Shown piece by piece: positions 6,906 to 61,578 of a stretch of 64,000 nt of DNA (its first letter is position 1; each line of letters starts with the position of its first letter). A program made the translations under genes and the position numbers. A model generated the notes under the pieces. It ran no database searches. It worked only from the letters and a program-made list of their open reading frames with translations, and was not told where the DNA came from. The DNA comes from Thalassobaculaceae bacterium (GTDB lineage Bacteria; Pseudomonadota; Alphaproteobacteria; Thalassobaculales; Thalassobaculaceae), in the NCBI GenBank assembly GCA_963691835.1, contig OY829383.1:3184457-3248456 (forward strand), in the 5' to 3' direction.

Positions 6906-7436
6906 TTATCCGATCACGATCGTGGTGTCGGAGGTGAAGGTGTAGTCCGGAACGTCGAGGTTCGCGGGGGCCGGACCCTTCCGGATACGGCCGGACGTGT
7001 CGTAGTGCGAGCCGTGGCACGGGCAGAACCAGCCGCCGTACTCGCCCTTCGGATCCGTCGCCTTCTGACCAAGCGGCACGCAGCCCAGATGGGTGCAGAC
7101 CCCGACCAGCACGAGATATTGCGGGTTTGGAGCGCGATCCGCGTCGCTCTGCGGGTCCGGCAGGTCCGTCAACGGCGTGGTCTCAGCCTCGTCGATCTCA
7201 GCGCCTGTGCGATGACGGACGAAGACCGGCTTGCCGCGCCACATGACCGTGATCGACATGCCCTCTTCAATCAGGGACACATCGACCTCGGTGGTCGACA
7301 GGGCCAGCGTATCCGCGGCCGGGTTGAGCTGGTGGATGAACGGCCAAGCAACCGCCACTGCGCCAACCGCTCCCATGGTGGCGCTGGCGACATGCAGAAA
7401 GTCGCGCCGCGACTCCTCCGGATGAGTATCTGCCAT
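6906..7436 (-). CDS. petA: Ubiquinol-cytochrome c reductase Rieske iron-sulfur subunit
   Basis: Tat-like N-terminus (SRRDFL) and Rieske 2Fe-2S boxes CTHLGC and CPCHGSHY. First gene of the petABC order. Confidence 0.95.
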
Positions 7437-7722
7437 AATCAGTCGTGCCTTTCGACGTCCTTGTAGCCCCTAGACGATACGAAAATCGTCAGCACTTCGC
7501 CTTCGGGAAATTTGCGACACGTGGTCGCGCGAATTACCCTGCGATAAACCCTTGGGCCCCACCCCCGGGCTATGCTGAGGGTCGTATACTGCACGTGACC
7601 CGGATTTGCAAAAAGATCCATGGGACTTAGGACGTTCGGCGGTTATGTCGACCTGTTCCGACTGCCGGACATACCGGGATGGTGTAGAACGGGCGCCGGT
7701 CCTCTCAAGGGTTTTCCTCCTT

Positions 7723-8184
7723 ATGCGCGTCGCCCTCTATCAGCCGGATATTCCACAAAACACAGGGACGATCCTCCGGACAGCCGCCTGTTTCGGTATC
7801 GGCGTCGATATCATCGAGCCATGCGGGTTCGTCTTCTCGGAGCCCAAGATGAGGCGCGCGGGCATGGATTATCTGGACCATGTCGATCTGGTCAGGCACC
7901 GGTCGTGGGAGGCTTTTCTTCGGTCCCGTGAGGCGCTTGGGAAGGCGGGCCGATTGGTACTGCTCACCACGGGCGGGGAGGTGCCGCTCGACCGCTCGGG
8001 CCTTGGCGCAGGCGACACGCTGCTGCTCGGGCGGGAGACCGCGGGTGTTCCCGAGGCAGTACATGATTCGGCCGACCTCAGAGTGCGGATCCCCATGGCC
8101 GAGGGAATGCGCTCGCTCAACGTCGCGGTTGCTGCGTCGATGGCGCTTTGGGAAGGACAACGGTCGCTGACAATGGGCGGTTGA
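7723..8184 (+). CDS. trmL: tRNA (cytidine/uridine-2'-O-)-methyltransferase, SpoU family (TrmL-like)
   Basis: From the internal ATG at 7723: [36 protein letters not shown]...[10 protein letters not shown]...[14 protein letters not shown] aligns by eye with E. coli TrmL over its whole ~153 aa. The longer ORF from 7606 is probably an over-extension. Confidence 0.8.
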
Positions 8185-48977: not shown

Positions 48978-50780
48978 ATGCCGCTCGGTCGAAACTACCC
49001 TCAAGTGGGACTTATCGCAGTTACCGTGGCGGTCTTGGCCGGGATCGCCTTCACATATTTTTCGGAACGTCAGCTTCTGCGGGACCGGGAAATCAAGTCC
49101 CTGCAGATCCAGGCCGTAGAATTGACGGATGCCTTCAGGCGGTCTCTCAGGGTCACGACCGCGAACATGACAAGCGTTGCCGCCTACTTCGAGGCAAGCG
49201 ACAGCGTAGCGGAGCCCGAGTTCCATACCTTCATCGACGCATCCGGCTTCTTCTCCGAGGGTCGGCATATCCGGGCAATCGCGATCATGCCTGTTCTAAG
49301 GAATCAGGACATTGCGAGCTTCAACGAAGCGATGGCGGCGCGCACATCCGTTCGGCTGGGCCTTGGATATCCGGAGTGGTCGGGTGTGGCAGATACCGAA
49401 GCCCCGCTGACGATCCCGGCAACCTATGTGGAGTCCCCGGCTGGGCGTTCTGGCGTTGTGGGGTTCAACCTTGCACAGAGCCAGGAGCGTATGGAGGCCG
49501 CCCGGTCCGCCCGGGAAACAGGATCGATCGTAATGACAAGGCCGGTTGCCCTGTCGCAAGACGATGTCGCATCAAGCCAAAGCGTGCTTCTTGTGGCCTA
49601 TACCCCTCATGGCCGCCTGGGCTTGCGGGCCAATCTGACAGAGCGAGCCAGGCCCACGTTCATCGGTGTGGGCTACACCCCGGGCTTCCACATCGCCGAT
49701 ACTTTCAAGGACAATCCATCGGACCTGTCCGTCATGGTCGAAGACGTGACGGACGAGGGGACGTCGATCCCGATTTTTGATGGTGTCGAGCTTGAGGAAA
49801 CAACGGCTGTTGCGTCCTCGAAGATTACATTTGCAGGGCGTGATTGGCGACTGAACTTCTTCGCGCCGTCAGAGCGGTTGATGGCGACACCGGACTGGCT
49901 TCATCTGTTTCTGGTGATCAGCATCACGCTGACATTCGCGGTGGCCTTCAGCGCGCTCCGTCTCATCAACAGCGAGGCGACATTGGCCAGCCGCGTCCGC
50001 GAACGAACGGCCCAACTGGCGGATCAGAACGTCAGGCTTCAGAACGCGCAGACGGTCACGCAGGAGGCGTTGGTCAAGGCGCAGCAGGTCAACAAGATGA
50101 AGTCCGAGTTCCTTGCAACAATGTCCCATGAATTCAGAACGCCACTCAACGCGATCATCGGTTTCACCGACTTTCTGATCAATTACCGAAGCGACGCAAA
50201 CCGGGAGAAGACCGGCGAATACCTTCAGGACATCAAAACCAGTGGATATCACATGTTGGAGCTGGTCAACGAGATACTCGATGCCGCATCGCTTGAAGTG
50301 GGAAAGAGGGAGCTATCACTGGAAGAATTTGACATTTCTTCTGAGCTTCAGGAGGCCATGAACTCTCTCAGGAGCCTCAGCAATCAGAAGAAGATCACTT
50401 TGATCATGAAGAAACCGGAAACCGCGGTGGATGTGAGACTCGATAGAACCGCGATACGGCAGATCTTCCTCAACCTCCTGTCCAACGCGATCAAGTTCTC
50501 TCCTCAGTCTTCCGTGGTCGAGGCTAACATCCATGCCGAGCCGGGGCAGGTGCAGATTGAGTTTCTCGACAACGGCCCGGGAATCCCGTCAAACGCTCTG
50601 GAAAAGATCACTCTGCCGTTCACCCGGGCGGAAAACGATCCGATGCTGACGAAGGAAGGGACCGGTCTCGGTCTGTCCGTCGTCAAGGGCCTTGTGGACC
50701 TCCACGGTGGTGAGCTGACGATTCAAAACCGAGACGGTGGCGGCGCCCTTGTCCGTGTGACCCTTCCGAGTACTCTGTAA
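48978..50780 (+). CDS. Sensor histidine kinase with a periplasmic CHASE-like domain
   Basis: TM helix, a ~270-aa extracytoplasmic region, a second TM helix and a coiled coil. HisKA box SEFLATMSHEFRTPLNAIIGF and HATPase_c (NLLSNAIKF...DNGPGIP...GTGLGLSVVKGLVDLHGG). No receiver domain. Confidence 0.85.
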   Translation: MPLGRNYPQVGLIAVTVAVLAGIAFTYFSERQLLRDREIKSLQIQAVELTDAFRRSLRVTTANMTSVAAYFEASDSVAEPEFHTFIDASGFFSEGRHIRAIAIMPVLRNQDIASFNEAMAARTSVRLGLGYPEWSGVADTEAPLTIPATYVESPAGRSGVVGFNLAQSQERMEAARSARETGSIVMTRPVALSQDDVASSQSVLLVAYTPHGRLGLRANLTERARPTFIGVGYTPGFHIADTFKDNPSDLSVMVEDVTDEGTSIPIFDGVELEETTAVASSKITFAGRDWRLNFFAPSERLMATPDWLHLFLVISITLTFAVAFSALRLINSEATLASRVRERTAQLADQNVRLQNAQTVTQEALVKAQQVNKMKSEFLATMSHEFRTPLNAIIGFTDFLINYRSDANREKTGEYLQDIKTSGYHMLELVNEILDAASLEVGKRELSLEEFDISSELQEAMNSLRSLSNQKKITLIMKKPETAVDVRLDRTAIRQIFLNLLSNAIKFSPQSSVVEANIHAEPGQVQIEFLDNGPGIPSNALEKITLPFTRAENDPMLTKEGTGLGLSVVKGLVDLHGGELTIQNRDGGGALVRVTLPSTL

Positions 50781-51694: not shown

Positions 51695-51718
51695 AAGTAA
51701 TTGGTCGGGGAGAGAGGA
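51695..51718. repeat. Distal att-type direct repeat (copy of the tRNA-Pro 3' end)
   Basis: aagtaattggtcggggagagagga. 19 nt (51700-51718) are identical to 61500-61518, and 23 of 24 nt match when extended to 51695/61495. Confidence 0.85.
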
Positions 51719-51826
51719 GCCGATAGGCCTTCATAAAACACAAGCGAAATCAGTATATTGCGCGTGAAGCAGTCAGTGTGTGTAGCACGCTGGTGTAGCA
51801 CCATCAATAGTCAGAACAAGCGACTT

Positions 51827-54049
51827 CTATACCTGAACTGGGATTTCGAGTGTAGGCCGGAGCGGCTCAAGCTGGGTTGCATATGCCCGAACAATTTGAT
51901 CGTATAGGCCCGTTACACCGCGGGCCTTCACGCTTACAATTAGAGCGTATGGCAGCGTTGCATCTGGAGCGAAATTGCGTCCCTCCAGCCGAGCATTGTA
52001 ATGCAGATCAAATACTGGATTTCTTAGAGACCGGCCCCGCATCCTTTTGGTAGCATGGAGGCAGTTTTCCCATTTCCAAGCATCACGTCGCAACTCGTCT
52101 TCAGTCGCTCCAGATTGAGCCGATCCAAAAAACGATGTCGTATTCGGGTGAAGTTGGTCGTCCCTTGAGAATTTTTCATCATGTGGACGGAATGCGATCT
52201 CAAGCCCTGATTGAGTATAGTTTCCGGGATGATGGGGGTCGGTTTGTGATTTGTAGCAAACAGTAGCCTTAATATTCACCATGCTACTAATTTGTGCCGG
52301 AGGCATGGGCACCTTTACTCTGACGTATTGGGCAGGCGATATTTCACCTTGATAAACTACTCGATACTCGTCATCAGCACACAGAACAATATCGTTTAAG
52401 TCTTGTGCGCAACGCCCCCAGCCGACCTCATGTAGGTCAAGGTCACTGGTCTCTGCCATATGAACAAGAAGCGCACGAATTGCCAGGTGTCCCAAGTCAG
52501 CGCCGAAATGCGCTCTAACACCAGTGCCCATTCTCAACACGCTGGGGGTAGCGAATGATGTGCCAGCTGTTGTGGTTAGCGTGGGGCTAGTTTCTGGGCC
52601 TAGAACAATGAATGGGCGTGCGAGGGAACCCCCAAAACCTACAAGATCGGGCTTTACTAGACCCGGGCTGCGTCCCGGTCCCACAGAGCTGTATGAGGCG
52701 CGCACCCAATTCGCATCGGTGGTATCGCACGCTCCGATCGCAAGAGCGTTTACGCAATCTGAGGGTACTTGAACCCTGTTCAGCCCAGTAGCTGCGTCAC
52801 TTTCACCGTCATTCCCAACCGCAATCATCGCAAGTGTATGGCTGCGCGATAGTCGATCATCCAGTACAGCAGTCCAAGCGTGGACGTCGTCATCCTCTAT
52901 GGGTAGGTACGGCCCGATGCTGAGATTGATAAAGTCATACTCGTGCTCTGAGAGCACGCCTTCTATCCGTTCAAGAACTTCATACAGTTCATGAACATTC
53001 TGACCCGGGTCTTCGTCGACGACCCTGTAGTGGTCTATCGCTGCGAAGGGTCGGGGAAAGGGGTTCTGAGGGTCTAGATGCCCAAAAAGTGCGGCGGATG
53101 TGACCGCTACGCCGTGTTCGAGAAGTGCAGGGCTCGCTGGCGACATACCCTCAATCTCATATGGCGTCACCCATTGAGTAATGGGATGTTCGTCGGGTAT
53201 TCCACCGTCAAAAATCGCGACGCGGGTTTGATCTGATATGGGAGGTTCATCGGGAAGCGTCGGACTTGTCGTTGGAATGGCTACCGTCCGAACAGTTGGG
53301 CGGAGCACTCGCAAATCTGGCATTCTCCTCAAGGCGCGAACTGACGAGAATGTAGCAATTTCTTCAGCTTGCTCTGAAGGCCCATCTATTTCAATGAAAC
53401 ACAAGCCTCTCGCATAGAACCGTCGCCCGAAGTCTCGACTTATCCCGCGAGCTTCGAGAAACCGGCCAAATGCGTCTAGCAGTTCGATCTCGCCCTCAAT
53501 TCCATTAGCATGGAGAACGACCTCCATCGCTAGTGTGCCCTCGTCTGGCAGGCCTCCTTTGATCTTTGCACGTGGATTAGGAGCCGAGATTTCCTCGATA
53601 GAAACGAGTTCCTCGGCGCTCCGTCGGGTCGATGACCAGTTTGGGAGGCTCTCACTCCATCGACGAAATGCGCTGCGAGACCCGCGCGCAAACAGTTCGG
53701 TGCTTACTGCCTCAGAAGGCACACGATCCCGTGAGCGCTTCTGGGGCGTCACTTTACGTGGACGACTGCCGACAACATCCATCCCAACATCGCGAAGCAG
53801 TTCCATTGGAAAGTATGACTTCGCGATGTATTCGGGGTTTAGGGTCAAAGAAAGGATTGCTTTATCATGGGGGCAGGCATCGTCTGGCAGTTGGTCCAAA
53901 GAGCCAACGGCGGTGGTTAGCATTGGTGTTAGCCGAGTTCGGGCCTCGCCAAATGTATAAGGAGCCAGCTTGGGCCCGCCTCCAGAACGAACTGTTACCG
54001 GTTCCGTAAGTCGTTCGCCTCTGCCAAGAAGGAAGTTCTGTTTCGCCAT
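51827..54049 (-). CDS. S8 (subtilisin-family) serine peptidase with large N- and C-terminal extra domains; IetS-like candidate
   Basis: 740 aa. Catalytic-triad motifs occur in subtilase order: RVAIFDGGI (Asp), LEHGVAVTSAALFG (His), IAVGNDGE (oxyanion Asn) and TAGTSFATPSV (Ser). No signal peptide. Starts 7 nt after the AAA+ ATPase stop. Confidence 0.8.
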   Translation of the reverse strand: MAKQNFLLGRGERLTEPVTVRSGGGPKLAPYTFGEARTRLTPMLTTAVGSLDQLPDDACPHDKAILSLTLNPEYIAKSYFPMELLRDVGMDVVGSRPRKVTPQKRSRDRVPSEAVSTELFARGSRSAFRRWSESLPNWSSTRRSAEELVSIEEISAPNPRAKIKGGLPDEGTLAMEVVLHANGIEGEIELLDAFGRFLEARGISRDFGRRFYARGLCFIEIDGPSEQAEEIATFSSVRALRRMPDLRVLRPTVRTVAIPTTSPTLPDEPPISDQTRVAIFDGGIPDEHPITQWVTPYEIEGMSPASPALLEHGVAVTSAALFGHLDPQNPFPRPFAAIDHYRVVDEDPGQNVHELYEVLERIEGVLSEHEYDFINLSIGPYLPIEDDDVHAWTAVLDDRLSRSHTLAMIAVGNDGESDAATGLNRVQVPSDCVNALAIGACDTTDANWVRASYSSVGPGRSPGLVKPDLVGFGGSLARPFIVLGPETSPTLTTTAGTSFATPSVLRMGTGVRAHFGADLGHLAIRALLVHMAETSDLDLHEVGWGRCAQDLNDIVLCADDEYRVVYQGEISPAQYVRVKVPMPPAQISSMVNIKATVCYKSQTDPHHPGNYTQSGLEIAFRPHDEKFSRDDQLHPNTTSFFGSAQSGATEDELRRDAWKWENCLHATKRMRGRSLRNPVFDLHYNARLEGRNFAPDATLPYALIVSVKARGVTGLYDQIVRAYATQLEPLRPTLEIPVQV

Positions 54050-54056
54050 CGATAAG

Positions 54057-55160
54057 TCAGCTTTCGGCAGGGTGAGCCTTGACGTGCTCCCTTATTGTGT
54101 CGCGAGCAACGCCAGTAAGCTCATGCGCTCTGCGCTGTGATGTGAGACCGGACTGAACAAGCTGGACTGCCATTCTAATGCGATCTGATTTTGAAAGTGA
54201 TTCTCCTGATAGTAGCGAAGATAGATGGTCGTTTAAACCCTTCCCATTCAGCGCAGCAGAACGGCGGGCCCTATTTAATGTCCGCTCCACGTCGCTAAAT
54301 GACAGCCCACCGAAGGCGACGGACAAAACGTCCGACCAATCGTCTGCGTTTTTGGTAAATGGATCGAGCTGCGACTTGATGAAAATCTGTGCTGCTTCCT
54401 GAGAAGGAAGATTGAACTCTACCAACTCCTCAAATCGCCTCCAAATTGCCGGATCAAGAAGTTCAGCATGATTAGTTGCGGCTATAAGAATGCCACTTGA
54501 GGGCCAGTCATCTAGTTGCTGAAGTAAAACCGTTACGAGGCGCTTGAGTTCTCCTATTTCTCCGCCGTCATCACGGCGTTTTGCTATCGCATCCAGTTCA
54601 TCTAGAAGCAAAATCCCGTCAATAGATTTTGCGTAATCAAGTACGTGACGAAGATTTGAGCCGGTTCGTCCCAGATAACTGCTCATTACTGCGGAAAGAT
54701 CGAGTATCAGTAAGGGGCGCTCAAGTTCACGGGCCAACCACCGGGCAGCCATAGTTTTGCCAACACCCGGGGGGCCAGTGAACAGAACTGTCCGAGTTGG
54801 CTCCAAGCCAACATCTGAAAGCGCCTTTGTGCTAGCGCGTTCTTCCATCAGACGCTCAAGTACTCCGCGTACCTTCTCGTCAAAAACAGGTTCGTGGGGT
54901 AGCTCAGGTGTTTCTTCAATACGTATCAGTTGAAAGCGCGTATCGGTGTCCACTGGTACGGGCAGCTCGGTGTTTCGACGCAAAGGTGATGAACGGGTTG
55001 GACGCTTCCTCAATAGCTCAACTAGAGCCGTGGATAGAGCCGCGCTCTCCGTGCGCTTTGCGACACGATGCAAAAAGGTCTGAACGTCCTGAGGCCGTCC
55101 GGATAGTGCTATCCTAGCCAGATGGACGAAATTATCTTCAATATCAGATTTATCGGCCAT
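54057..55160 (-). CDS. AAA+ ATPase (classic-clade AAA domain); IetA-like candidate
   Basis: 367 aa. Walker A FTGPPGVGKT, Walker B ILLLDELD, sensor-1 IAATNHAELLD and Arg finger AIWRRFE. The ~130-aa N-terminal domain is unknown. The C-terminal tail RAHELTGVARDTIREHV looks HTH-like. Confidence 0.85.
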   Translation of the reverse strand: MADKSDIEDNFVHLARIALSGRPQDVQTFLHRVAKRTESAALSTALVELLRKRPTRSSPLRRNTELPVPVDTDTRFQLIRIEETPELPHEPVFDEKVRGVLERLMEERASTKALSDVGLEPTRTVLFTGPPGVGKTMAARWLARELERPLLILDLSAVMSSYLGRTGSNLRHVLDYAKSIDGILLLDELDAIAKRRDDGGEIGELKRLVTVLLQQLDDWPSSGILIAATNHAELLDPAIWRRFEELVEFNLPSQEAAQIFIKSQLDPFTKNADDWSDVLSVAFGGLSFSDVERTLNRARRSAALNGKGLNDHLSSLLSGESLSKSDRIRMAVQLVQSGLTSQRRAHELTGVARDTIREHVKAHPAES

Positions 55161-55306
55161 GTTAGGCTTCGCATCCCCTTTAACGAGGGAATCATTGAAT
55201 CATGGTGTGGAAGAAAATTCAATAAGAAGATGGAAAAATCGTCCATTGGCTACGGGTGGTAGCCATTGATAGTGCCTGCTCGGGCTGTCGCTCTCGCCCG
55301 GTGACG

Positions 55307-55324
55307 TGTGCAACTCGTTGCACA
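55307..55324. promoter_or_regulatory. Perfect 8+8 palindrome between the orphan gene and the ATPase gene
   Basis: tgtgcaac-tc-gttgcaca lies 3 nt beyond the stop of the 476-aa ORF, inside the 167-bp spacer upstream of the ATPase gene. A second inverted repeat, tggctac-gggtg-gtagcca, is at 55247-55265. Confidence 0.35.
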
Positions 55325-55327
55325 AAA

Positions 55328-56758
55328 TCACCGGAACTGGCGGCGATCGACCCCCTCAAGGGCGGCGGTTAATGCTGATCCATAGGGTTCAGCAAGAATG
55401 TATCGAGGTTCTCTTGTGCGCTGGTCAGGTCGGGTGAGAACCAAAATACCATCACACAAGAGCTGGATGATCATTTGATCGATCCGATCGTCGCCGGTCG
55501 GAGAAATTCCCCCATTCATCAACAAGAGAAGCAGAACTCGTTCAACGGCGAATGGGTTGCCTGTTCCTGCGCGGGCGACTGCAGCAATCGCTGAACTGTA
55601 GAGATGTAATGGGTTGTCGAGGCGGAGGCTTACGTCTGGAAGCGCCGACAGCAGTCGTTCGAGACGCTCTCGTGCGTCATTGCGAAGGAAATCGAGCATA
55701 GTGACCAATCCGTCGAAAGAAGTGGCAAACCGGTTCTGGGTCGCCCTACTGCCAAATATTTGGCGGACATTCCTCAAATACCGAACTTCGAACCTCAATC
55801 GGTCATATTCCTTGGCGTATACAGCTATTTCGACGTACCGGTTGTTTGTGGTTGCGATGACGGAGATTGCATTCCTCAACTGACGCCAACGGCCACGCCC
55901 GGGCTCACGATAAGGGCGGGCCGGTGGCAAGTCGTAGTCGGTAGCTAACGTGTCCTTGGATACAGCGAACAAAGCTGGGCGTAGGTGATGGACAAACGAA
56001 ATCGCATCAGGGACACGATACTCCCAAAAAACTTCACATCTGCGCATGATCCAGTTGGACCACGGCAGGTCGACTAAAGCATCAAAGTCGCCAAGCTCAG
56101 CGGCTGAACGAATGCGTTGATCGAATGGCTCAGCCAATATGCTTGGCGGGAGACCGTCTTCGCTGCTTACCGTTTCAAGCAGCTCGGAAAACCCGTTGAG
56201 AAGATTGGACAATGCGTTGACGCTAGCAGGGAAGAATGGGCGTAGGGTTCGCCATTGCTCCAGTGGAAGAAAGTTATCGGAGCCATCCAATGATAACGCA
56301 GAAAGCCGCTCTGTGATTTCCGGATGCCTAAGCAGAGTGCTTACGGCTGTAGCCTCTTCGTAAACTGTGTCATTTGGGGCGTGAGCGAGAAGCCTTGTGA
56401 GGCTCACAACGAGGTCAACCGAAGTGCGAGCGCGCTCAATCGAAACAGTTTGTCGGGCAGTGTGACGCTCTACAGAAAGGTCAACTGCCCCGGATGTGCT
56501 TAGCTTGAACGAAGCAACAGCGTCACTGTTCGTTTTAACGGATATCCGCTGCGCATTGTAGCGAGGTATCTGAAAAGGTCCGGTGCCTGCGAGAAGTTCA
56601 AGAAAACCTCGCCTTGAGGACGGAGACGAAAAGGCAATGCGCCCACTGTTGAATTGAAGGTCGATACGGTCGAATTGGGCTTCGTCTAAAGAGGGCGTTA
56701 TACCAGCTTGAAAGGGAGTGATATTCGGTCTGGGTCTATAACGGACGCGTCTTGCCAT
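55328..56758 (-). CDS. Hypothetical 476-aa protein (island cargo, no recognised family)
   Basis: Long uninterrupted ORF co-oriented with the ATPase/protease genes and of the same low-GC composition. The only motif-level hint is RYVEIAVYAKEYDRLRFEVRY, reminiscent of the Y-x-K...R-x-E pattern of Rep_trans-type initiators/relaxases. This is a weak hint. Confidence 0.65.
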   Translation of the reverse strand: MARRVRYRPRPNITPFQAGITPSLDEAQFDRIDLQFNSGRIAFSSPSSRRGFLELLAGTGPFQIPRYNAQRISVKTNSDAVASFKLSTSGAVDLSVERHTARQTVSIERARTSVDLVVSLTRLLAHAPNDTVYEEATAVSTLLRHPEITERLSALSLDGSDNFLPLEQWRTLRPFFPASVNALSNLLNGFSELLETVSSEDGLPPSILAEPFDQRIRSAAELGDFDALVDLPWSNWIMRRCEVFWEYRVPDAISFVHHLRPALFAVSKDTLATDYDLPPARPYREPGRGRWRQLRNAISVIATTNNRYVEIAVYAKEYDRLRFEVRYLRNVRQIFGSRATQNRFATSFDGLVTMLDFLRNDARERLERLLSALPDVSLRLDNPLHLYSSAIAAVARAGTGNPFAVERVLLLLLMNGGISPTGDDRIDQMIIQLLCDGILVLTRPDQRTREPRYILAEPYGSALTAALEGVDRRQFR

Positions 56759-56817
56759 TCATCCTCTCGGTTCTGCGCCTATACCCCTTGGTATCCCTCT
56801 GTAGAGTGGACGTTACC

Positions 56818-57453
56818 CTAGTGCAATCCCAGCCGAGTGACCAACCTTCTAACGGTCGTGCGCTGCCAAGTCTTGCCGGTGCTGGTTTGCACGCTGAGTT
56901 CATTTAGCGCCTGCGCTAGTGCCTCGTAGCGTGTTGCGCCATGCTGCGCGACGAGGCGCTCTAAGATGGGGGCCATCTCGCGAGCGAACGCATCCGCCGC
57001 TGCACGGTTCTCCCTCGCGCGGTCGATGCCGGTAACGCCCAAGGCCACGCCCCTTGCCTTCGCTGCCGCCAATGCTGATTTCGTTCGCGCGCTGATCAGC
57101 TCTCGCTCGTGCTCGGCGAAGGCCGCGAGCATGTGCACCATGAGCCGATTGGCATGGGGGTTATCGGTCGCTACGAAATCTACGCCGCTTTCCATTAGGC
57201 CGCTGACGAAGTGGACGTTGCGGGCGAGACGGTCGAGTTTCGCGATGACCAGTGTCGCTTTCCGGCGGCGGCACATCGAGATTGCCGCACTGAGTTCTGG
57301 GCGATCCTTACGCTTGCCGCTCTCGACCTCGGTGAAGGTCTCGATCAGGTCGCCACGGTCCACTGATACGAAACGCTCCACGGCTTCCCGCTGCGCTTCC
57401 AACCCAAGACCGGACTGGCCTTGTCGATCCGTGCTGACGCGGAAGTAGGCCAC
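56818..57453 (-). CDS. Serine recombinase (resolvase/invertase family)
   Basis: VAYFRVSTDRQGQSGLGLEAQREAV (catalytic Ser box)...LVIAKLDRLARNV...ISARTKSALAAAKARG. The start is uncertain: GTG at 57453 or TTG at 57495. The ATG at 57663 would overlap the neighbouring gene by ~100 nt. Confidence 0.8.
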   Translation of the reverse strand: MAYFRVSTDRQGQSGLGLEAQREAVERFVSVDRGDLIETFTEVESGKRKDRPELSAAISMCRRRKATLVIAKLDRLARNVHFVSGLMESGVDFVATDNPHANRLMVHMLAAFAEHERELISARTKSALAAAKARGVALGVTGIDRARENRAAADAFAREMAPILERLVAQHGATRYEALAQALNELSVQTSTGKTWQRTTVRRLVTRLGLH

Positions 57454-57559
57454 GAACCGCTTGCTGGGTAGCGTCTCTTTGCCCTCCGGTGACAAGTGGA
57501 GGACCGTTCTTTTGTCACCAGATGTCCCGTTTTCCGCTAGGGGACCGATTTTCCTGTCC

Positions 57560-58231
57560 TCAAACACGGGTGGTTGCCTGCACTTCAGTGCACCGGGGTG
57601 CACACGCGATAGCTTTGTTACTGAAGACCGGGAAACCCGTATAGCGATCCGAGTGATCCCCATACGCGTCCAGCCAGCCGTCCCGAACGAGCCACCGTTT
57701 GGGACGCTGGTAGGTGAAGACCTCGCGTATTGGCCGCTCGTGCCATCCCACGTTGAACGTCCCCGGCGAGGTGAAGAAGGTTAGGCGGTGGTAGGGCAGA
57801 TGATCGTGTACCCACCAAGCCATCTGGTTCGATGTCTCTGCCCACGGGCCATGATCGGCCAGCCACGGAACGGCGATACAGGCCGCAGCGCCCCGGTAGC
57901 CCTGCTCGTCCAGCAAGTCCCACACGTGATAGGCCGCGTTCTTCGCGTTGCTAGCGCACTTGAGCCGCCGCTGCGCGCCGAACGCGTTGAGTGCGAGAGA
58001 GCGGTAGCCGGATCGGACGATGATCGGCCCGAACGCTTCTGCGATCGGCTCTAGGATCGCTTCGCACAACTGTTGCCCGTTCTCGATGGCGAGGTCTGGG
58101 TCTACTGGGACGTTCGGCAGGCGATAGAACGCCGCAATCTCTGAATGCAGGAACTGCCGCATCTGGAAGTGCTTGGACAGACGCACCCGCCCCAAACGCT
58201 CCAGATCGGAAAACCCCCCTATGTAGTGCAT
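57560..58231 (-). CDS. Peptidase M15 (Peptidase_M15_3 / D-Ala-D-Ala carboxypeptidase-fold)-like protein, no signal peptide
   Basis: LSKHFQMRQFLHSE...LCEAILEPIAEAFGPIIVRSGYRSLALNA follows the N-terminal consensus of M15_3 peptidases as I recall it. The downstream H/D metal-ligand spacing (AAYHVWDLLD) looks atypical. Confidence 0.45.
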   Translation of the reverse strand: MHYIGGFSDLERLGRVRLSKHFQMRQFLHSEIAAFYRLPNVPVDPDLAIENGQQLCEAILEPIAEAFGPIIVRSGYRSLALNAFGAQRRLKCASNAKNAAYHVWDLLDEQGYRGAAACIAVPWLADHGPWAETSNQMAWWVHDHLPYHRLTFFTSPGTFNVGWHERPIREVFTYQRPKRWLVRDGWLDAYGDHSDRYTGFPVFSNKAIACAPRCTEVQATTRV

Positions 58232-58315
58232 TGGTTACTCCCTCAATACCCCATATGGTACCAAGGGAGCGATCTTCTGTCAAGAAAAATACAATTAAAT
58301 CAATAAGTTATTCGG

Positions 58316-59029
58316 TCACTCCAGCTTGCTCAACGCTGCCGGGATGTCGATACTTGGTCCTGCGTAGGCCGCGACGGGCAGTTTGTTGGCCCCCGCTGTC
58401 AGGTGGGGCATTCCCTTGATGTGCGTCATCGCCGTGCCGTTCACAGGCGCAATCAGCAAATCGACATTCAACGCCCGGCCCACCGCGTACAGCCCCATGA
58501 GATCGCGTGCACCGACGCCCATGGCCTGACAACCGACAAGACGAGCACCCTCCACTGTCTCCCATCCGCAGCGAATTGCATTGAACCTGCCGCGATCGAA
58601 CAGCGGATAGTTGGTGCTGTTGAGGCGGAACGCATAGTAACTCTCCAATGCGCCCTTTGCGGTCTTCGCATCGGCGCTCGTTGCCGCCGCCACCGCCGAG
58701 CCGCTAATCGCAGGTCCACCTGTGTGCATCGCGTTGCACTTGATTTTCCATCTGTTCTCAATGGCGTGTGCGAGGAGAGCATAGAACGAGACGCCAGTCT
58801 GCTCCTCCAACGGTTTGTTGAGCTTGCGGACTTCCGCCTCGGCCCATTCATCGGCCTTCGCGATGTCCGTGAACCGCCTCTGGCTCTCGCGCGTGATCTC
58901 CAGCGACTGACGCTCGTACTCGCAGTACGCGGGGAGCGCCGCTTCCGTGACTTCCGCTGCAACGGACACATTCGCCACGCCAGCAACAACCGCGAAAGCA
59001 ACCATCGCGCCCACAAGCCTTCTCGTCAT
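58316..59029 (-). CDS. Hypothetical secreted protein
   Basis: 237 aa with signal peptide MTRRLVGAMVAFAVVAGVANVSVA/AE, four Cys residues, and no recognised domain. Confidence 0.55.
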   Translation of the reverse strand: MTRRLVGAMVAFAVVAGVANVSVAAEVTEAALPAYCEYERQSLEITRESQRRFTDIAKADEWAEAEVRKLNKPLEEQTGVSFYALLAHAIENRWKIKCNAMHTGGPAISGSAVAAATSADAKTAKGALESYYAFRLNSTNYPLFDRGRFNAIRCGWETVEGARLVGCQAMGVGARDLMGLYAVGRALNVDLLIAPVNGTAMTHIKGMPHLTAGANKLPVAAYAGPSIDIPAALSKLE

Positions 59030-59155
59030 TACTGTCTCCCACCTGAGGTGTTGGTTCGAGTTGAAGGCTATACTCCCATCTTAGCCTCGGAATTTCAATC
59101 CAAAGTCGTAGAAATGTCTCGTGTCAGAAGTCATCACCAATAGGGATGCTTCGGC

Positions 59156-59506
59156 ATGGAACTTCGGGTACTCGTCGGACAAAGGACCAGGTCTTTGCGC
59201 CGCGCTGCGGGACAAACGCAGCGGGACCTTGCGGACGCGCTTGGGCGTCAGGAGGAAACGATCAGCGCGATTGAGCGGGGATTGAACCTGCCCAGCGAGG
59301 ATACGTTGATCGGGCTCAGCCGGGTGCTTGACGTTCCGGTGCACGCCTTCTTCGAGGTCGGCGACATCTCGGCCAAGGATCGTGAGAGGGAAGCGATGAT
59401 TGCCGAGGTGCTTGCCCTGTGTCGGCAACTCCCCAAACGGGATTTGGAAATCGCCCTTCGTCAGGTCGAAGCGTTCTCACCCAAGCCGCCGTCAGAGGCT
59501 CTCTGA
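59156..59506 (+). CDS. XRE-family helix-turn-helix transcriptional regulator
   Basis: GQRTRSLRRAAGQTQRDLADALGRQEETISAIERGLNLPSEDTLIGLSRVL is a canonical HTH_3 (Cro/C1) domain. It is the only plus-strand gene on the island. Confidence 0.8.
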   Translation: MELRVLVGQRTRSLRRAAGQTQRDLADALGRQEETISAIERGLNLPSEDTLIGLSRVLDVPVHAFFEVGDISAKDREREAMIAEVLALCRQLPKRDLEIALRQVEAFSPKPPSEAL

Positions 59507-59552
59507 GAGCCCTGCAGCACGTGCCCCCCATGGTCCCCTCTCCAATCGTGAT

Positions 59553-61358
59553 CTAGGGCTCTCTGCGTGCCTCGGAGGCGCTCGGGTATAGGTGCGAGAG
59601 GTCGAGGTCGGGGTACTCGATCAGCGCCACCAGCTTTGCCAGTTCATCAATCGGGTAGTCGCCACCGTACCGGCTAGCCATACCCTTGCCGTCGCTCCAC
59701 CCGAATACGTCGTCGATCTTTTCGTCCGCGCGATGGCCTGCCTCTCGAAATAGATCGGCGCGGCGGAGTGCCTGTCGGGCCGTGTGCCGGAAGGAGTGGA
59801 AGTCCACGTTGTTTCCATCAACGCCGACAGCCTTGCGGAAGGTCCGGTACAGCTTGGAGAACCGGTAGCTTGGTTTCCTGCCTTCGATCAGCATCTCCGG
59901 GAAAAGGGCGCCATTGCCGGAACGTCGGCACTGTCCAACGAACTCAAGGAAACCCAGTTTCACCAACTCGGGGTGAACCGGAACGTCCCGGATTGCGTTC
60001 CGCGTCTTCACGGACATCCATTCCTCGTCGTTGCAGATCGACAGGTATGGGGTGCCCGCGTCAGTTGCTCGCACGTCTTGTGCTCGAAGCTGACAAAGTT
60101 CGCCAGCACGGGCTCCCGTGAAAAGCCCGAGAAGGGGTAGCCAGAACCGGCCTCGTTTTGGTCGGTTGGGACCGGGCCTGTTGAACCCATACTCGTCGTT
60201 GCGGCATCCGGTGTAGAGCGGTGAATTGAATAACGCGCGGAGGTCTTCGATCTCGTAGGCGGTCCGATGCTTCCGCTTGCCATCCTTGGAGCGAGTGGGT
60301 TCGATCAACTCGAAAGGGTCGCTGGTCATCAGCTCGTGACGACGGCACCAGCGAACGAACCTTCTTAACTCCCGTTCGTAGTCGGCCCTGACCCTTTCCG
60401 AGATAGGTAGCTGACCGTCCTGTTCAGCAGCGGTTACCGCTTCGGCAAGTGATAGCTCCGGATACTTCTTGCGGCGGTTCGTTGGAAGTCTGGCGGTCGA
60501 GCGTAGGAAGGCCTCGACATCCCGAGCCTTCATTTCATCGACTTGGAAGGTGTCGCCGAAATGGCTGCGGATCACCTCGTGCCATCTGGAGACCTTCGAT
60601 GCCTGCTCATGGTCGCTGGACGAGCGTGATGCTGCCGTTTCTTGTGCGAACCGTTCGAGCGCGTCCTTGATGTTGGTGCCGGAACCTCGTCGCACGGTTC
60701 CGGATTTTCGCTCTGTCTCAAACGGATCGTCATTTCCAAACAGATGATCCCGGATCGCCTGATCCTCGCCGGTCTCCAGCGTCTGGAGATGCCGACGCTC
60801 CAGCTCCATCATCGCTTGGCGCAGAAGCTCGGTCAGATGGTCATGTTCTGGATCGCCGACATTGCCCGCATACCCATGCTCGGTAAGTAGCGCGTTTGCT
60901 ATGTCTTGAGTTGCGGCGAGTGTTCCGCCGTCGTCGGGATCGGCAAGTTGGGCCAACATAGAACGAGCATCGTCGATGGCCTCATCGAGATGTTCGGGTG
61001 TTCCCGCCCAGCGGTCTGCCAGCTCCTGCCGATACCACCGCCGCGCAAGTTCGGTCGCAGCCGAGCGGGTCAGAGGATTTAGTTCCCCGCTCTGCAATGC
61101 CTCACGGCGTGTACGCCTTAGGCGTTCTTGACGGGTCGGCGCACGTTGACGAACACGCACGCCGGGATGGTCCAACTCGAACTGCTTGCGTTCGAACTCG
61201 TCGCGCCATCTGGCAGACACTTCGTACCAAGCGCGCTCGGCCTCGGCTCGATCCTCAGTGCCGAGTGATACCCATATCTGCGACTTGCCGTAGAGGTCCC
61301 GCAGGCCACGGGGGACAGTGGCACGGTAGTACCACATCCGTGACCGCTTCCGGGTCAT
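59553..61358 (-). CDS. Tyrosine-type site-specific integrase
   Basis: C-terminal catalytic domain with GARAGELCQLR (Arg), HSFRHTARQ (H-x-x-R) and MASRYGGDY (Tyr). The long N-terminal arm-binding region WYYRATVPRGLRDLYGK is typical of alphaproteobacterial island integrases. It sits adjacent to the tRNA. The start may be 61358, 61337 or GTG at 61409. Confidence 0.85.
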   Translation of the reverse strand: MTRKRSRMWYYRATVPRGLRDLYGKSQIWVSLGTEDRAEAERAWYEVSARWRDEFERKQFELDHPGVRVRQRAPTRQERLRRTRREALQSGELNPLTRSAATELARRWYRQELADRWAGTPEHLDEAIDDARSMLAQLADPDDGGTLAATQDIANALLTEHGYAGNVGDPEHDHLTELLRQAMMELERRHLQTLETGEDQAIRDHLFGNDDPFETERKSGTVRRGSGTNIKDALERFAQETAASRSSSDHEQASKVSRWHEVIRSHFGDTFQVDEMKARDVEAFLRSTARLPTNRRKKYPELSLAEAVTAAEQDGQLPISERVRADYERELRRFVRWCRRHELMTSDPFELIEPTRSKDGKRKHRTAYEIEDLRALFNSPLYTGCRNDEYGFNRPGPNRPKRGRFWLPLLGLFTGARAGELCQLRAQDVRATDAGTPYLSICNDEEWMSVKTRNAIRDVPVHPELVKLGFLEFVGQCRRSGNGALFPEMLIEGRKPSYRFSKLYRTFRKAVGVDGNNVDFHSFRHTARQALRRADLFREAGHRADEKIDDVFGWSDGKGMASRYGGDYPIDELAKLVALIEYPDLDLSHLYPSASEARREP

Positions 61359-61494
61359 CAGTCCGGGGAATTTCGCCACGTCTTCCACGCCTCTGGTGTA
61401 GCACAGCACCAGAACACGCGCAGTCTGTAAGTGGCTGATATCGCTTGCTACCTGTCGAACCCTAAGGTTTCTGCGATGTTCACGAGGTAGCTAG

Positions 61495-61518
61495 AAGTGA
61501 TTGGTCGGGGAGAGAGGA
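61495..61518. repeat. Proximal att-type direct repeat (overlaps the 3' end of tRNA-Pro)
   Basis: aagtgattggtcggggagagagga. 61500-61518 is identical to 51700-51718 and covers the last 17 nt of the tRNA including CCA. Confidence 0.85.
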
Positions 61519-61578
61519 TTCGAACCTCCGGCCCCTGCCTCCCGAAGACAGTGCTCTACCAGGCTGAGCTACTCCCCG
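61502..61578 (-). tRNA. tRNA-Pro (anticodon CGG)
   Basis: Minus-strand sequence CGGGGAGTAGCTCAGCCTGGTAGAGCACTGTCTTCGGGAGGCAGGGGCCGGAGGTTCGAATCCTCTCTCCCCGACCA folds by hand into a cloverleaf. It has a 7-bp acceptor stem, D arm GCTC/GAGC, anticodon stem CTGTC/GGCAG with loop TTCGGGA, T loop TTCGAAT and an encoded CCA. Confidence 0.9.

Follow-up and report, generated by a model that had tools for sequence, protein, structure and literature searches.

The 64,000-nucleotide (nt) window analyzed here, from contig OY829383.1 of a Thalassobaculaceae bacterium, contains next to its tRNA-Pro(CGG) gene a 9.8-kb element that is very probably an integrative genomic island, with a tyrosine integrase of its own, a fixed layout shared with a family of such islands, and a cargo that includes a gene pair resembling the anti-phage system IetAS. 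All positions given without a contig name refer to this window. The element is flanked by genes for an Asp/Glu racemase on the left and a polyprenyl synthase (IspB) on the right, and between them lie a direct repeat at either end, the tRNA gene and eight protein-coding genes (Table 1). An initial annotation, made from the sequence alone, had described the flanks as housekeeping and everything between the repeats as accessory. The description of the flanks stands, and the interior is better regarded as a conserved mobility backbone (integrase, XRE-type regulator, a variable secreted protein, orf223 and a small serine recombinase) joined to a swappable defence cargo.

Table 1. Features of the tRNA-Pro(CGG) island and its flanks, in window coordinates. 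L081 and L092 are contigs carrying related islands described in the text; aa, amino acids; HTH, helix-turn-helix; ARAGORN, Rfam, Pfam, PADLOC, NCBIfam and PHROG entries are the supporting matches.
Feature	Position	Strand	Evidence or remarks
Asp/Glu racemase, left flank	50891-51565		gene call and family match
Distal core repeat (attachment site away from the tRNA)	51700-51718		last 17 nt of tRNA-Pro plus 2 nt; L081 homology ends at 51701
Distal arm (P'-like), about 95 nt	51719-51812	-	arm blocks conserved in L092 beside unrelated cargo
IetS-like S8 (subtilase) peptidase, 740 aa	51827-54049	-	Pfam Peptidase_S8 5e-19; PADLOC IetS 2.3e-41; NCBIfam IteS 6e-32, below cut-off
IetA-like AAA+ ATPase, 367 aa	54057-55160	-	Pfam AAA 6.5e-31; PADLOC IetA 3.5e-79; NCBIfam IteA 4e-67, below cut-off
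orf476, first gene of the cargo slot, uncharacterised family	55328-56758	-	AlphaFold2 model: two-lobed beta-sheet fold and C-terminal winged helix
Small serine recombinase (resolvase/invertase type), about 249 aa, last backbone gene, abuts the cargo	56818-57567	-	Pfam Resolvase 7e-31; PHROG DNA invertase 2e-35
orf223, conserved backbone protein, SGYRS motif	57560-58231	-	48-82% identity across seven islands
orf237, variable backbone protein, signal-peptide-like N-terminus	58316-59029	-	41-89% identity and 237-400 aa among islands
XRE-type HTH regulator, convergent with the integrase	59156-59506	+	Pfam HTH_31 2e-11, HTH_3 5e-10; in all family members
Tyrosine integrase, N-terminal DUF6538 domain, 608-618 aa depending on the start	59553-61388	-	Pfam DUF6538 3e-15, Phage_integrase 1e-6; PHROG integrase 2e-24
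Proximal arm (P-like)	61389-61499	-	blocks conserved in six islands with integrases 71-91% identical
Proximal core repeat	61500-61518		overlaps the 3' end of tRNA-Pro
tRNA-Pro(CGG), integration target	61502-61578	-	ARAGORN; Rfam 62 bits
Polyprenyl synthase/IspB, right flank	61654-62670		gene call and family match

The ends of the element are marked by a perfect 19-nt direct repeat, ATTGGTCGGGGAGAGAGGA on the + strand, whose two copies start 9,800 bp apart and are the only ones in the window. None of 100 dinucleotide-preserving shuffles gave a match, even with two mismatches permitted. When the five nucleotides immediately outside are included (AAGTA and AAGTG), the extended copies AAGTAATTGGTCGGGGAGAGAGGAGCCGA and AAGTGATTGGTCGGGGAGAGAGGATTCGA agree at 23 of 24 positions, and a 29-nt stretch is 90% identical. 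The repeat and its extended match are thus as first annotated. ARAGORN identified one intact tRNA-Pro(CGG) gene with an encoded CCA, which is the sole tRNA that it called in the window, and the right repeat consists of the last 17 nt of this gene, CCA included, plus two downstream bases; together with the Rfam match, this agrees with the earlier assignment of the right copy to the 3' terminus of a minus-strand tRNA-Pro(CGG). At the left copy, similarity to the tRNA ends after 17 nt and ARAGORN calls neither a tRNA nor a pseudo-tRNA; therefore, the left repeat does not belong to a second tRNA or pseudogene, an origin that the initial annotation had named as speaking against integration. Further degenerate copies of the tRNA end, of the kind expected from older or tandem islands, were absent from the 64-kb window, and an Rfam scan for non-coding RNAs returned nothing but the tRNA-Pro.

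The integrase gene lies just inside the right repeat. Its open reading frame (ORF) extends at longest over 59553-61409, with GTG codons at 61388 or 61379 as the probable start, and it begins 90-140 nt inside the repeat depending on the start chosen, which accommodates the distance of about 140 nt noted before. In an alignment of 12 homologues, R424, K458, H528, R531, W561 and Y571 are invariant; thus, the active site of the integrase is complete. Searches with an integrase profile against 2.9 million viral contigs gave five distant matches (24-37% identity), the relatives on plasmids and chromids are likewise distant only (30% identity or less), and no mention of DUF6538 was found in the literature searched. 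A recorded integrase (P0121) is 99.8% identical to that of the island and a paralogous one (P0129) is 51% identical; the two are recorded from contigs of equal length (5,466,303 bp), and a second member of the island family may be present in the source genome.

Short repeated sequences lie in the two arms between the core repeats and the nearest genes. The distal arm contains two direct copies of (G)TGCTACAC(C)AG at 51781-51801, which can be read as TGCTACACCAG.GTGCTACA (51781-51800), and the proximal arm contains TGTGCTACACCAG at 61393-61405, directly upstream of the integrase start and in the same orientation as the two distal copies. There is also an inverted pair across the arms, AGCGAAATCAG (51743-51753, + strand) versus AGCGATATCAGC (61434-61445, - strand), and the exact 12-mer GTGCTACACCAG occurs only twice in the 64 kb, once near each end of the island. 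The TGCTACACCAG repeats in each arm are probably arm-type integrase sites, and the arm blocks conserved among islands are putative binding sites for the integrase, perhaps also for an accessory protein.

Integrase homologues with 71-88% identity were found on four further islands (contigs L090, L091, L092/L093 and L094), each of which starts in the 3' end of a tRNA-Pro gene and has the same order of integrase, XRE regulator on the opposite strand, variable secreted protein, orf223 and resolvase. What follows the resolvase differs from one to another: a 307-aa protein, a Type I restriction enzyme and HEC-07 in L090; an orf476 homologue, Vsr, a C5 methyltransferase and a restriction-enzyme-like HATPase protein in L091; a 309-aa protein, a Type II methyltransferase, PDC-S57 and SieB in L092; and a reverse transcriptase with a Type IIG restriction-modification enzyme in L094. 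In all comparisons (six islands), backbone homology stops in the last codons of the resolvase gene. L092 has both repeats, 10.9 kb apart, and its last approximately 100 nt align with the window despite the unrelated adjacent cargo. The slot of this family is therefore bounded by the resolvase stop codon on one side and the P' arm of about 95 nt on the other, and its content is replaced between members. A more distant arrangement was observed in L180 (1-6702), which has the order HTH gene, orf223 (52% identical), resolvase (69%) and orf476, an integrase of 29% identity, and a different tRNA 3' end (...GGTTCGAGTCCCTCCCTCGCTACCA) at its border. This suggests that the integrase/target module is exchangeable on the backbone.

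The 307- and 309-aa proteins of L090 (5236-6159) and L092 (5802-6731), which lie on the opposite strand, are 60% identical to each other and have no family match; both islands are devoid of orf476, and this protein may be an alternative occupant of the slot beside the resolvase. In the Logan contigs of these islands (L081, described below, and L090-L094), the first base always falls within the T-arm of the tRNA, 11-23 nt ahead of the 17 nt that the repeat shares with the tRNA. Among the five distinct starts, four are at a distance of 11-13 nt, and in L090 and L094 the 12 nt plus the 19-nt repeat make up one 31-mer. These starts look like an assembly-graph branch at the tRNA end, with several sequences following the same tRNA in a sample, and not like evidence of excision.

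Relatives of the right flank were collected by an IspB scan that used one genome per species and reached relatives of at most 80% identity (best Nisaea, the others from other Thalassobaculaceae/Rhodospirillales). An ARAGORN scan of these loci found ispB linked to tRNA-Pro(CGG) in 37 of 55. One of them, in a Thalassobaculaceae metagenome-assembled genome (MAG; L065) with an IspB 72% identical to that of the window, carries the same island directly after its tRNA-Pro, and a Logan contig 100% identical to this locus (L081) shows the entire element. Between L081 and the window, DNA identity is about 87% in the integrase, 74-92% in orf223 and the resolvase, and 96-99% over orf476-IetA-IetS, and the region of the regulator and orf237 cannot be aligned. 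Alignment to the window breaks off at position 51701, where the repeat has its outer edge. An 18-nt form of the repeat, TCCTCTCTCCCCGACCAA, borders the island of L081 on both sides, and past the distal copy the neighbouring gene encodes a chemotaxis receptor, not the racemase. Thus, although a housekeeping protein of the two hosts differs by 28%, their cargo is nearly identical and lies at the same tRNA, with the same boundaries and different neighbours; this is strong evidence for horizontal acquisition by site-specific integration.

The island is far from universal at this site. The initial annotation had considered that all relatives might carry the same gene block with no repeat, and a profile search built on the integrase alignment instead detected the integrase family at only 2 of 38 ispB-tRNA-Pro(CGG) loci (L065 and L068) and not at the other 36. 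The 38 loci comprise the 37 linked loci above and L068, which stood outside the ARAGORN scan and whose tRNA-Pro 3' end adjoins its integrase. Ten sampled genes that follow the tRNA in other relatives comprise ordinary metabolic and transport genes, four ORFs without family match and one IS481-type transposase. In the L068 locus (6968-7964), also from a Thalassobaculaceae MAG, the ispB-linked tRNA-Pro(CGG) is immediately followed by a DUF6538 integrase gene (38% identity), and the contig ends inside this gene.

Windowed base composition, a check that the initial annotation had proposed, sets the cargo apart. The 5 kb from 51813 to 56817 have a GC content of 0.526 and a GC content at third codon positions (GC3) of 0.45-0.52, well below the flanks, where GC is 0.62-0.66, GC3 is 0.74 in the racemase and 0.87 in ispB, and the lowest 5-kb window on the left side reaches 0.573. 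The backbone has a GC of 0.60 and a GC3 of 0.67-0.75.

Taken together, the intact tRNA, its duplicated 3' end, the complete integrase, the composition of the cargo and the copy in a distant host support the earlier proposal of an integrase-mediated insertion that regenerates the tRNA 3' end, and we are highly confident that the element is an integrative island of this kind. According to this model, the integrase would have recombined the attachment (att) site of the element with the last 17-19 nt or so of the chromosomal tRNA-Pro(CGG) gene; the copy brought by the element would rebuild the 3' end of the tRNA, and the original end would remain as the distal repeat. The resulting layout would read core repeat, P arm, integrase, XRE regulator, variable secreted protein, orf223, small serine recombinase, cargo slot, P' arm and core repeat. 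Excision is predicted to give a circular junction, P' arm-ATTGGTCGGGGAGAGAGGA-P arm, and a repaired chromosomal site (attB), GGCAAGTAATTGGTCGGGGAGAGAGGATTCGAACC. The slot would hold different anti-phage systems in different members, here orf476 and the IetAS-like pair, and its contents may be exchanged through recombination in the conserved flanks, namely the 3' end of the resolvase gene and the P' arm.

Several observations weigh against this reading. Searches of the eight island proteins with Pfam, NCBIfam, PHROGs and PADLOC recognised no excisionase (directionality factor), relaxase or coupling protein, and nothing for type IV secretion, replication or packaging. The GC content of the backbone is host-like, which would reflect either long residence or movement between hosts whose GC is alike. 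Among the relatives scanned, no empty site in strict synteny (racemase-tRNA-ispB) was found, because none was close enough at the racemase flank: the best racemase in a metagenome scan had 71% identity and neither a tRNA-Pro nor an ispB neighbour, none of the IspB-scan loci has the racemase within 10 kb, and an exact-sequence look-up of the racemase returned nothing on record. The alignment to relatives that had been proposed at the outset thus yielded the distant occupied site with exact boundaries and not the unoccupied racemase-tRNA-Pro-ispB site. Finally, the cargo pair scores far below the NCBIfam equivalog cut-offs (226.9 versus 510 bits for IteA and 110.7 versus 900 bits for IteS), and it is therefore named IetAS-like here and regarded as a distant relative of the tested system.

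Islands that have an integrase beside a tRNA gene and a direct repeat of the tRNA 3' end form a classic class, and the present island is a further example of this well-known kind of element. It shares with other tRNA-targeted tyrosine-recombinase islands the intact tRNA at one end, the 17-19-nt copy at the other, the adjacent integrase, the cargo of atypical GC and the variable presence among relatives; it differs in the integrase itself, which has an N-terminal DUF6538 domain and, at about 610 aa, is larger than those of P4 or lambda type. Mobile elements with hotspots for defence cargo are also familiar, including the hotspots of P2/P4 satellites, hotspot 5 of the SXT integrative and conjugative element (ICE) and the phage-defence elements of Vibrio. 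The island resembles them in its conserved mobility backbone with one slot, in which unrelated defence systems are swapped between close relatives. However, its backbone is very small, has no phage, satellite or conjugation genes, and confines the slot between the two borders described above. Modular defence hotspots have likewise been reported on genomic islands of Pseudomonas (PMC12629846). Current understanding of genomic islands is unchanged by our finding. The island represents a clean and well-delimited case of anti-phage systems moving between distantly related marine bacteria, in which one small backbone with one tRNA target carries a different defence load in each host. The analysis defines the exact att core and the borders of the cargo and names candidate arm sites, so that excision and integration assays as well as cargo swaps can be designed.

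The IetAS likeness of the cargo rests on an adjacent AAA+ ATPase and S8 protease, encoded on the same strand 7 nt apart, whose PADLOC matches cover the full model length, and on motifs read in the translations: Walker A (GPPGVGKT) and Walker B (LLLDELD) in the ATPase, and the Asp/His/Ser motifs in the protease. An exact-sequence look-up of the IetA-like protein found nothing on record. Two other elements carry pairs with 73-77% identity and have no orf476: an ICE-like element that encodes a relaxase and a type IV coupling protein (L083), and a prophage-like or gene transfer agent (GTA)-like region of Rhodobacter capsulatus. In the latter (L087:8348-15728, CP198956.1), the 75%-identical pair stands beside a ParE-like gene and adjoins tail/GTA-like genes (GTA_TIM, Phage-tail_3, Peptidase_M15_3), and its carrier there is apparently a prophage or a region related to GTAs. 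The island thus differs from other IetAS loci in its sub-equivalog scores and in the extra upstream orf476, which is not the SNF2 helicase that was recruited in the ietHAS variant (PMC13069673). We also considered orf476 as an obligatory third component of the system and rejected this, given the 73-77%-identical pairs that lack it.

IetAS was first identified as a toxin-antitoxin system that stabilises plasmids, in which toxin and antitoxin are the protease and the ATPase, respectively, and it acts against phages by a mechanism that is unknown (PMC13069673). Because IetAS is described in this way, the pair on the island is by analogy most likely a protease-toxin/ATPase-antitoxin module whose role is population-level phage defence, with stabilisation of the island as a possible second role. 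The same history could be read the other way, with the pair serving mainly as an addiction (post-segregational killing) module that holds the island in place. We regard this as unlikely, since sister islands use the same slot for restriction-modification systems, a reverse transcriptase, PDC-S57 and SieB, a pattern that suggests that defence cargo is selected for; the defence and addiction roles are not exclusive. The divergent pair and the abundant orf476 family, with its confident predicted structure and fixed genomic position, both lend themselves to functional study.

Searches of Pfam, PADLOC and PHROGs gave no match for orf476. With an exhaustive HMMER search, homologues were detected in 179 representative clusters (E of 1e-3 or below), none of them annotated, and none of 51 family members matched any Pfam family, Rep_trans (PF02486) included; tblastn found no homologue in 72,556 plasmids or 50,697 phages. 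The gene is 98% identical between the window and L081, and homologues in the same slot are 25% identical over the full length in L091 (E 3e-24) and 39% identical in L180; L090, L092 and L094 have none. An AlphaFold2 model of good confidence (pLDDT 83.4, pTM 0.83) combines two lobes of beta-sheet with a helical region and has a winged helix at the C-terminus. With Foldseek, no match in the PDB reached E of 1e-3; partial matches were to MarR-type winged helices and to a Rep_trans rolling-circle initiator (4cij; probability 0.54-0.60, TM score 0.20-0.33), and among viral models to TATA-binding protein (TBP)-like proteins and an inovirus 'REP' protein (E 7e-4). Conserved throughout the family is a hairpin with the pattern Tyr-x-Lys ... 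Arg-x-Glu-x-Arg, in which Y314, K316, R322 and E324 are invariant, as are D161, N162, E242 and E246 elsewhere in the protein.

These features raise the possibility, which would refine the transfer step and not replace the proposed island, that the element is an integrative mobilisable element and orf476 a very divergent tyrosine nuclease of Rep_trans type, either a rolling-circle initiator or a MOB_T-like relaxase. It would nick the excised island for replication, or for transfer through the conjugation pore of a helper. The confident fold, with 4cij and the inovirus protein among the TBP-like folds listed by Foldseek, and an invariant Tyr with a number of conserved acidic residues, of the sort reported for Rep_trans/MOB_T active sites (PMC6499999), are consistent with this, as is the position of orf476-type genes directly after the resolvase in every context available, even where the integrase is 29% identical. 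By hhalign, the VYAK...RFEVRY hairpin superposes on the active site of pT181 RepC (RIYNK...WRVEIE), but with a probability of 0.17% and an E value of 0.35, that is, with no statistical support. The absence of any Rep_trans match in the family, the low TM scores and the lack of plasmid and phage homologues also argue against it, and since three family members have no orf476, it is not the general transfer function of the family. Compared with the known Rep_trans/MOB_T integrative mobilisable elements (PMC6499999, PMC7563843), the island is similarly small, integrase-bearing and without a conjugation pore, and orf476 combines an invariant Tyr and invariant acidic residues with a fold that weakly resembles Rep_trans; however, those elements are from Firmicutes, the protein has no significant Rep_trans match, and the gene is missing from half of the island family. 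On balance, a nuclease role for orf476 is doubtful.

A still bolder extension is that the orf223/serine recombinase pair, often followed by an orf476-type gene, is the hallmark of a family of minimal mobile 'defence carriers' of marine Alphaproteobacteria that has yet to be described. Their tyrosine integrase and tRNA target would be exchangeable, defence systems would be placed in a dedicated slot after the recombinase gene, perhaps through the action of the serine recombinase, and orf476 would be a new Rep_trans-related branch of tyrosine nucleases that replicates or mobilises the excised circle. We consider this combination speculative and improbable as a whole.

A further explanation holds that the element is a fixed remnant of a past integrase insertion, which has lost excision and transfer and spreads through homologous recombination of its flanks. 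The missing directionality factor and transfer genes and the host-like GC and GC3 of the backbone would fit such a history. However, no mismatch separates the two repeats, and the integrase ORF is uninterrupted and retains every catalytic residue; the two hosts combine 72% IspB identity with 96-99% cargo identity and different distal flanks; and one backbone is found with at least five cargo variants. A fixed remnant is thus very unlikely compared with the integrative island. A prophage remnant or phage satellite packaged by a helper phage (similar to P4 or to phage-inducible chromosomal islands, PICIs) is the least probable of all, for although temperate phages and satellites, too, have an integrase and XRE module beside a tRNA and orf223 has a weak endolysin-like match at its N-terminus, no capsid, terminase, portal, primase/replicase or packaging-redirection gene was found in the island proteins with Pfam and PHROGs, the integrase has only its few distant viral matches, and orf476 is unmatched in phage records.

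As for the remaining backbone genes, orf223 possibly has a zinc peptidase fold of the M15/LAS type, judging from a sub-threshold match to Peptidase_M15_3 (E 0.1-0.17); the N-terminal PHROG endolysin match has an E value of 7e-11. A profile of orf223 gave chance matches only against PDB sequences, and its single-sequence structure model was unusable (pLDDT 34). orf237 has no family match in Pfam, NCBIfam or PHROGs. Lying where backbone meets cargo, the serine recombinase may act in exchanging cargo or resolving multimers, or its gene may simply be the last conserved one in which homologous recombination can take place; the resolvase/cargo junction contains no conserved motif pointing to a recombinase site.

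Promoter and terminator scans gave results no better than shuffles. The gap between the convergent HTH and integrase genes is crossed by a 30-nt imperfect inverted repeat (59492-59576, 77% complementary) that resembles a shared bidirectional terminator. Outside the island, GC dips to 0.53-0.57 at 49700-50600, in the 3' half of a 600-aa ORF (48978-50780) to the left of the racemase, and the C-terminal approximately 250 aa of this ORF match signalling-protein genes of several relatives with 23-35% identity.

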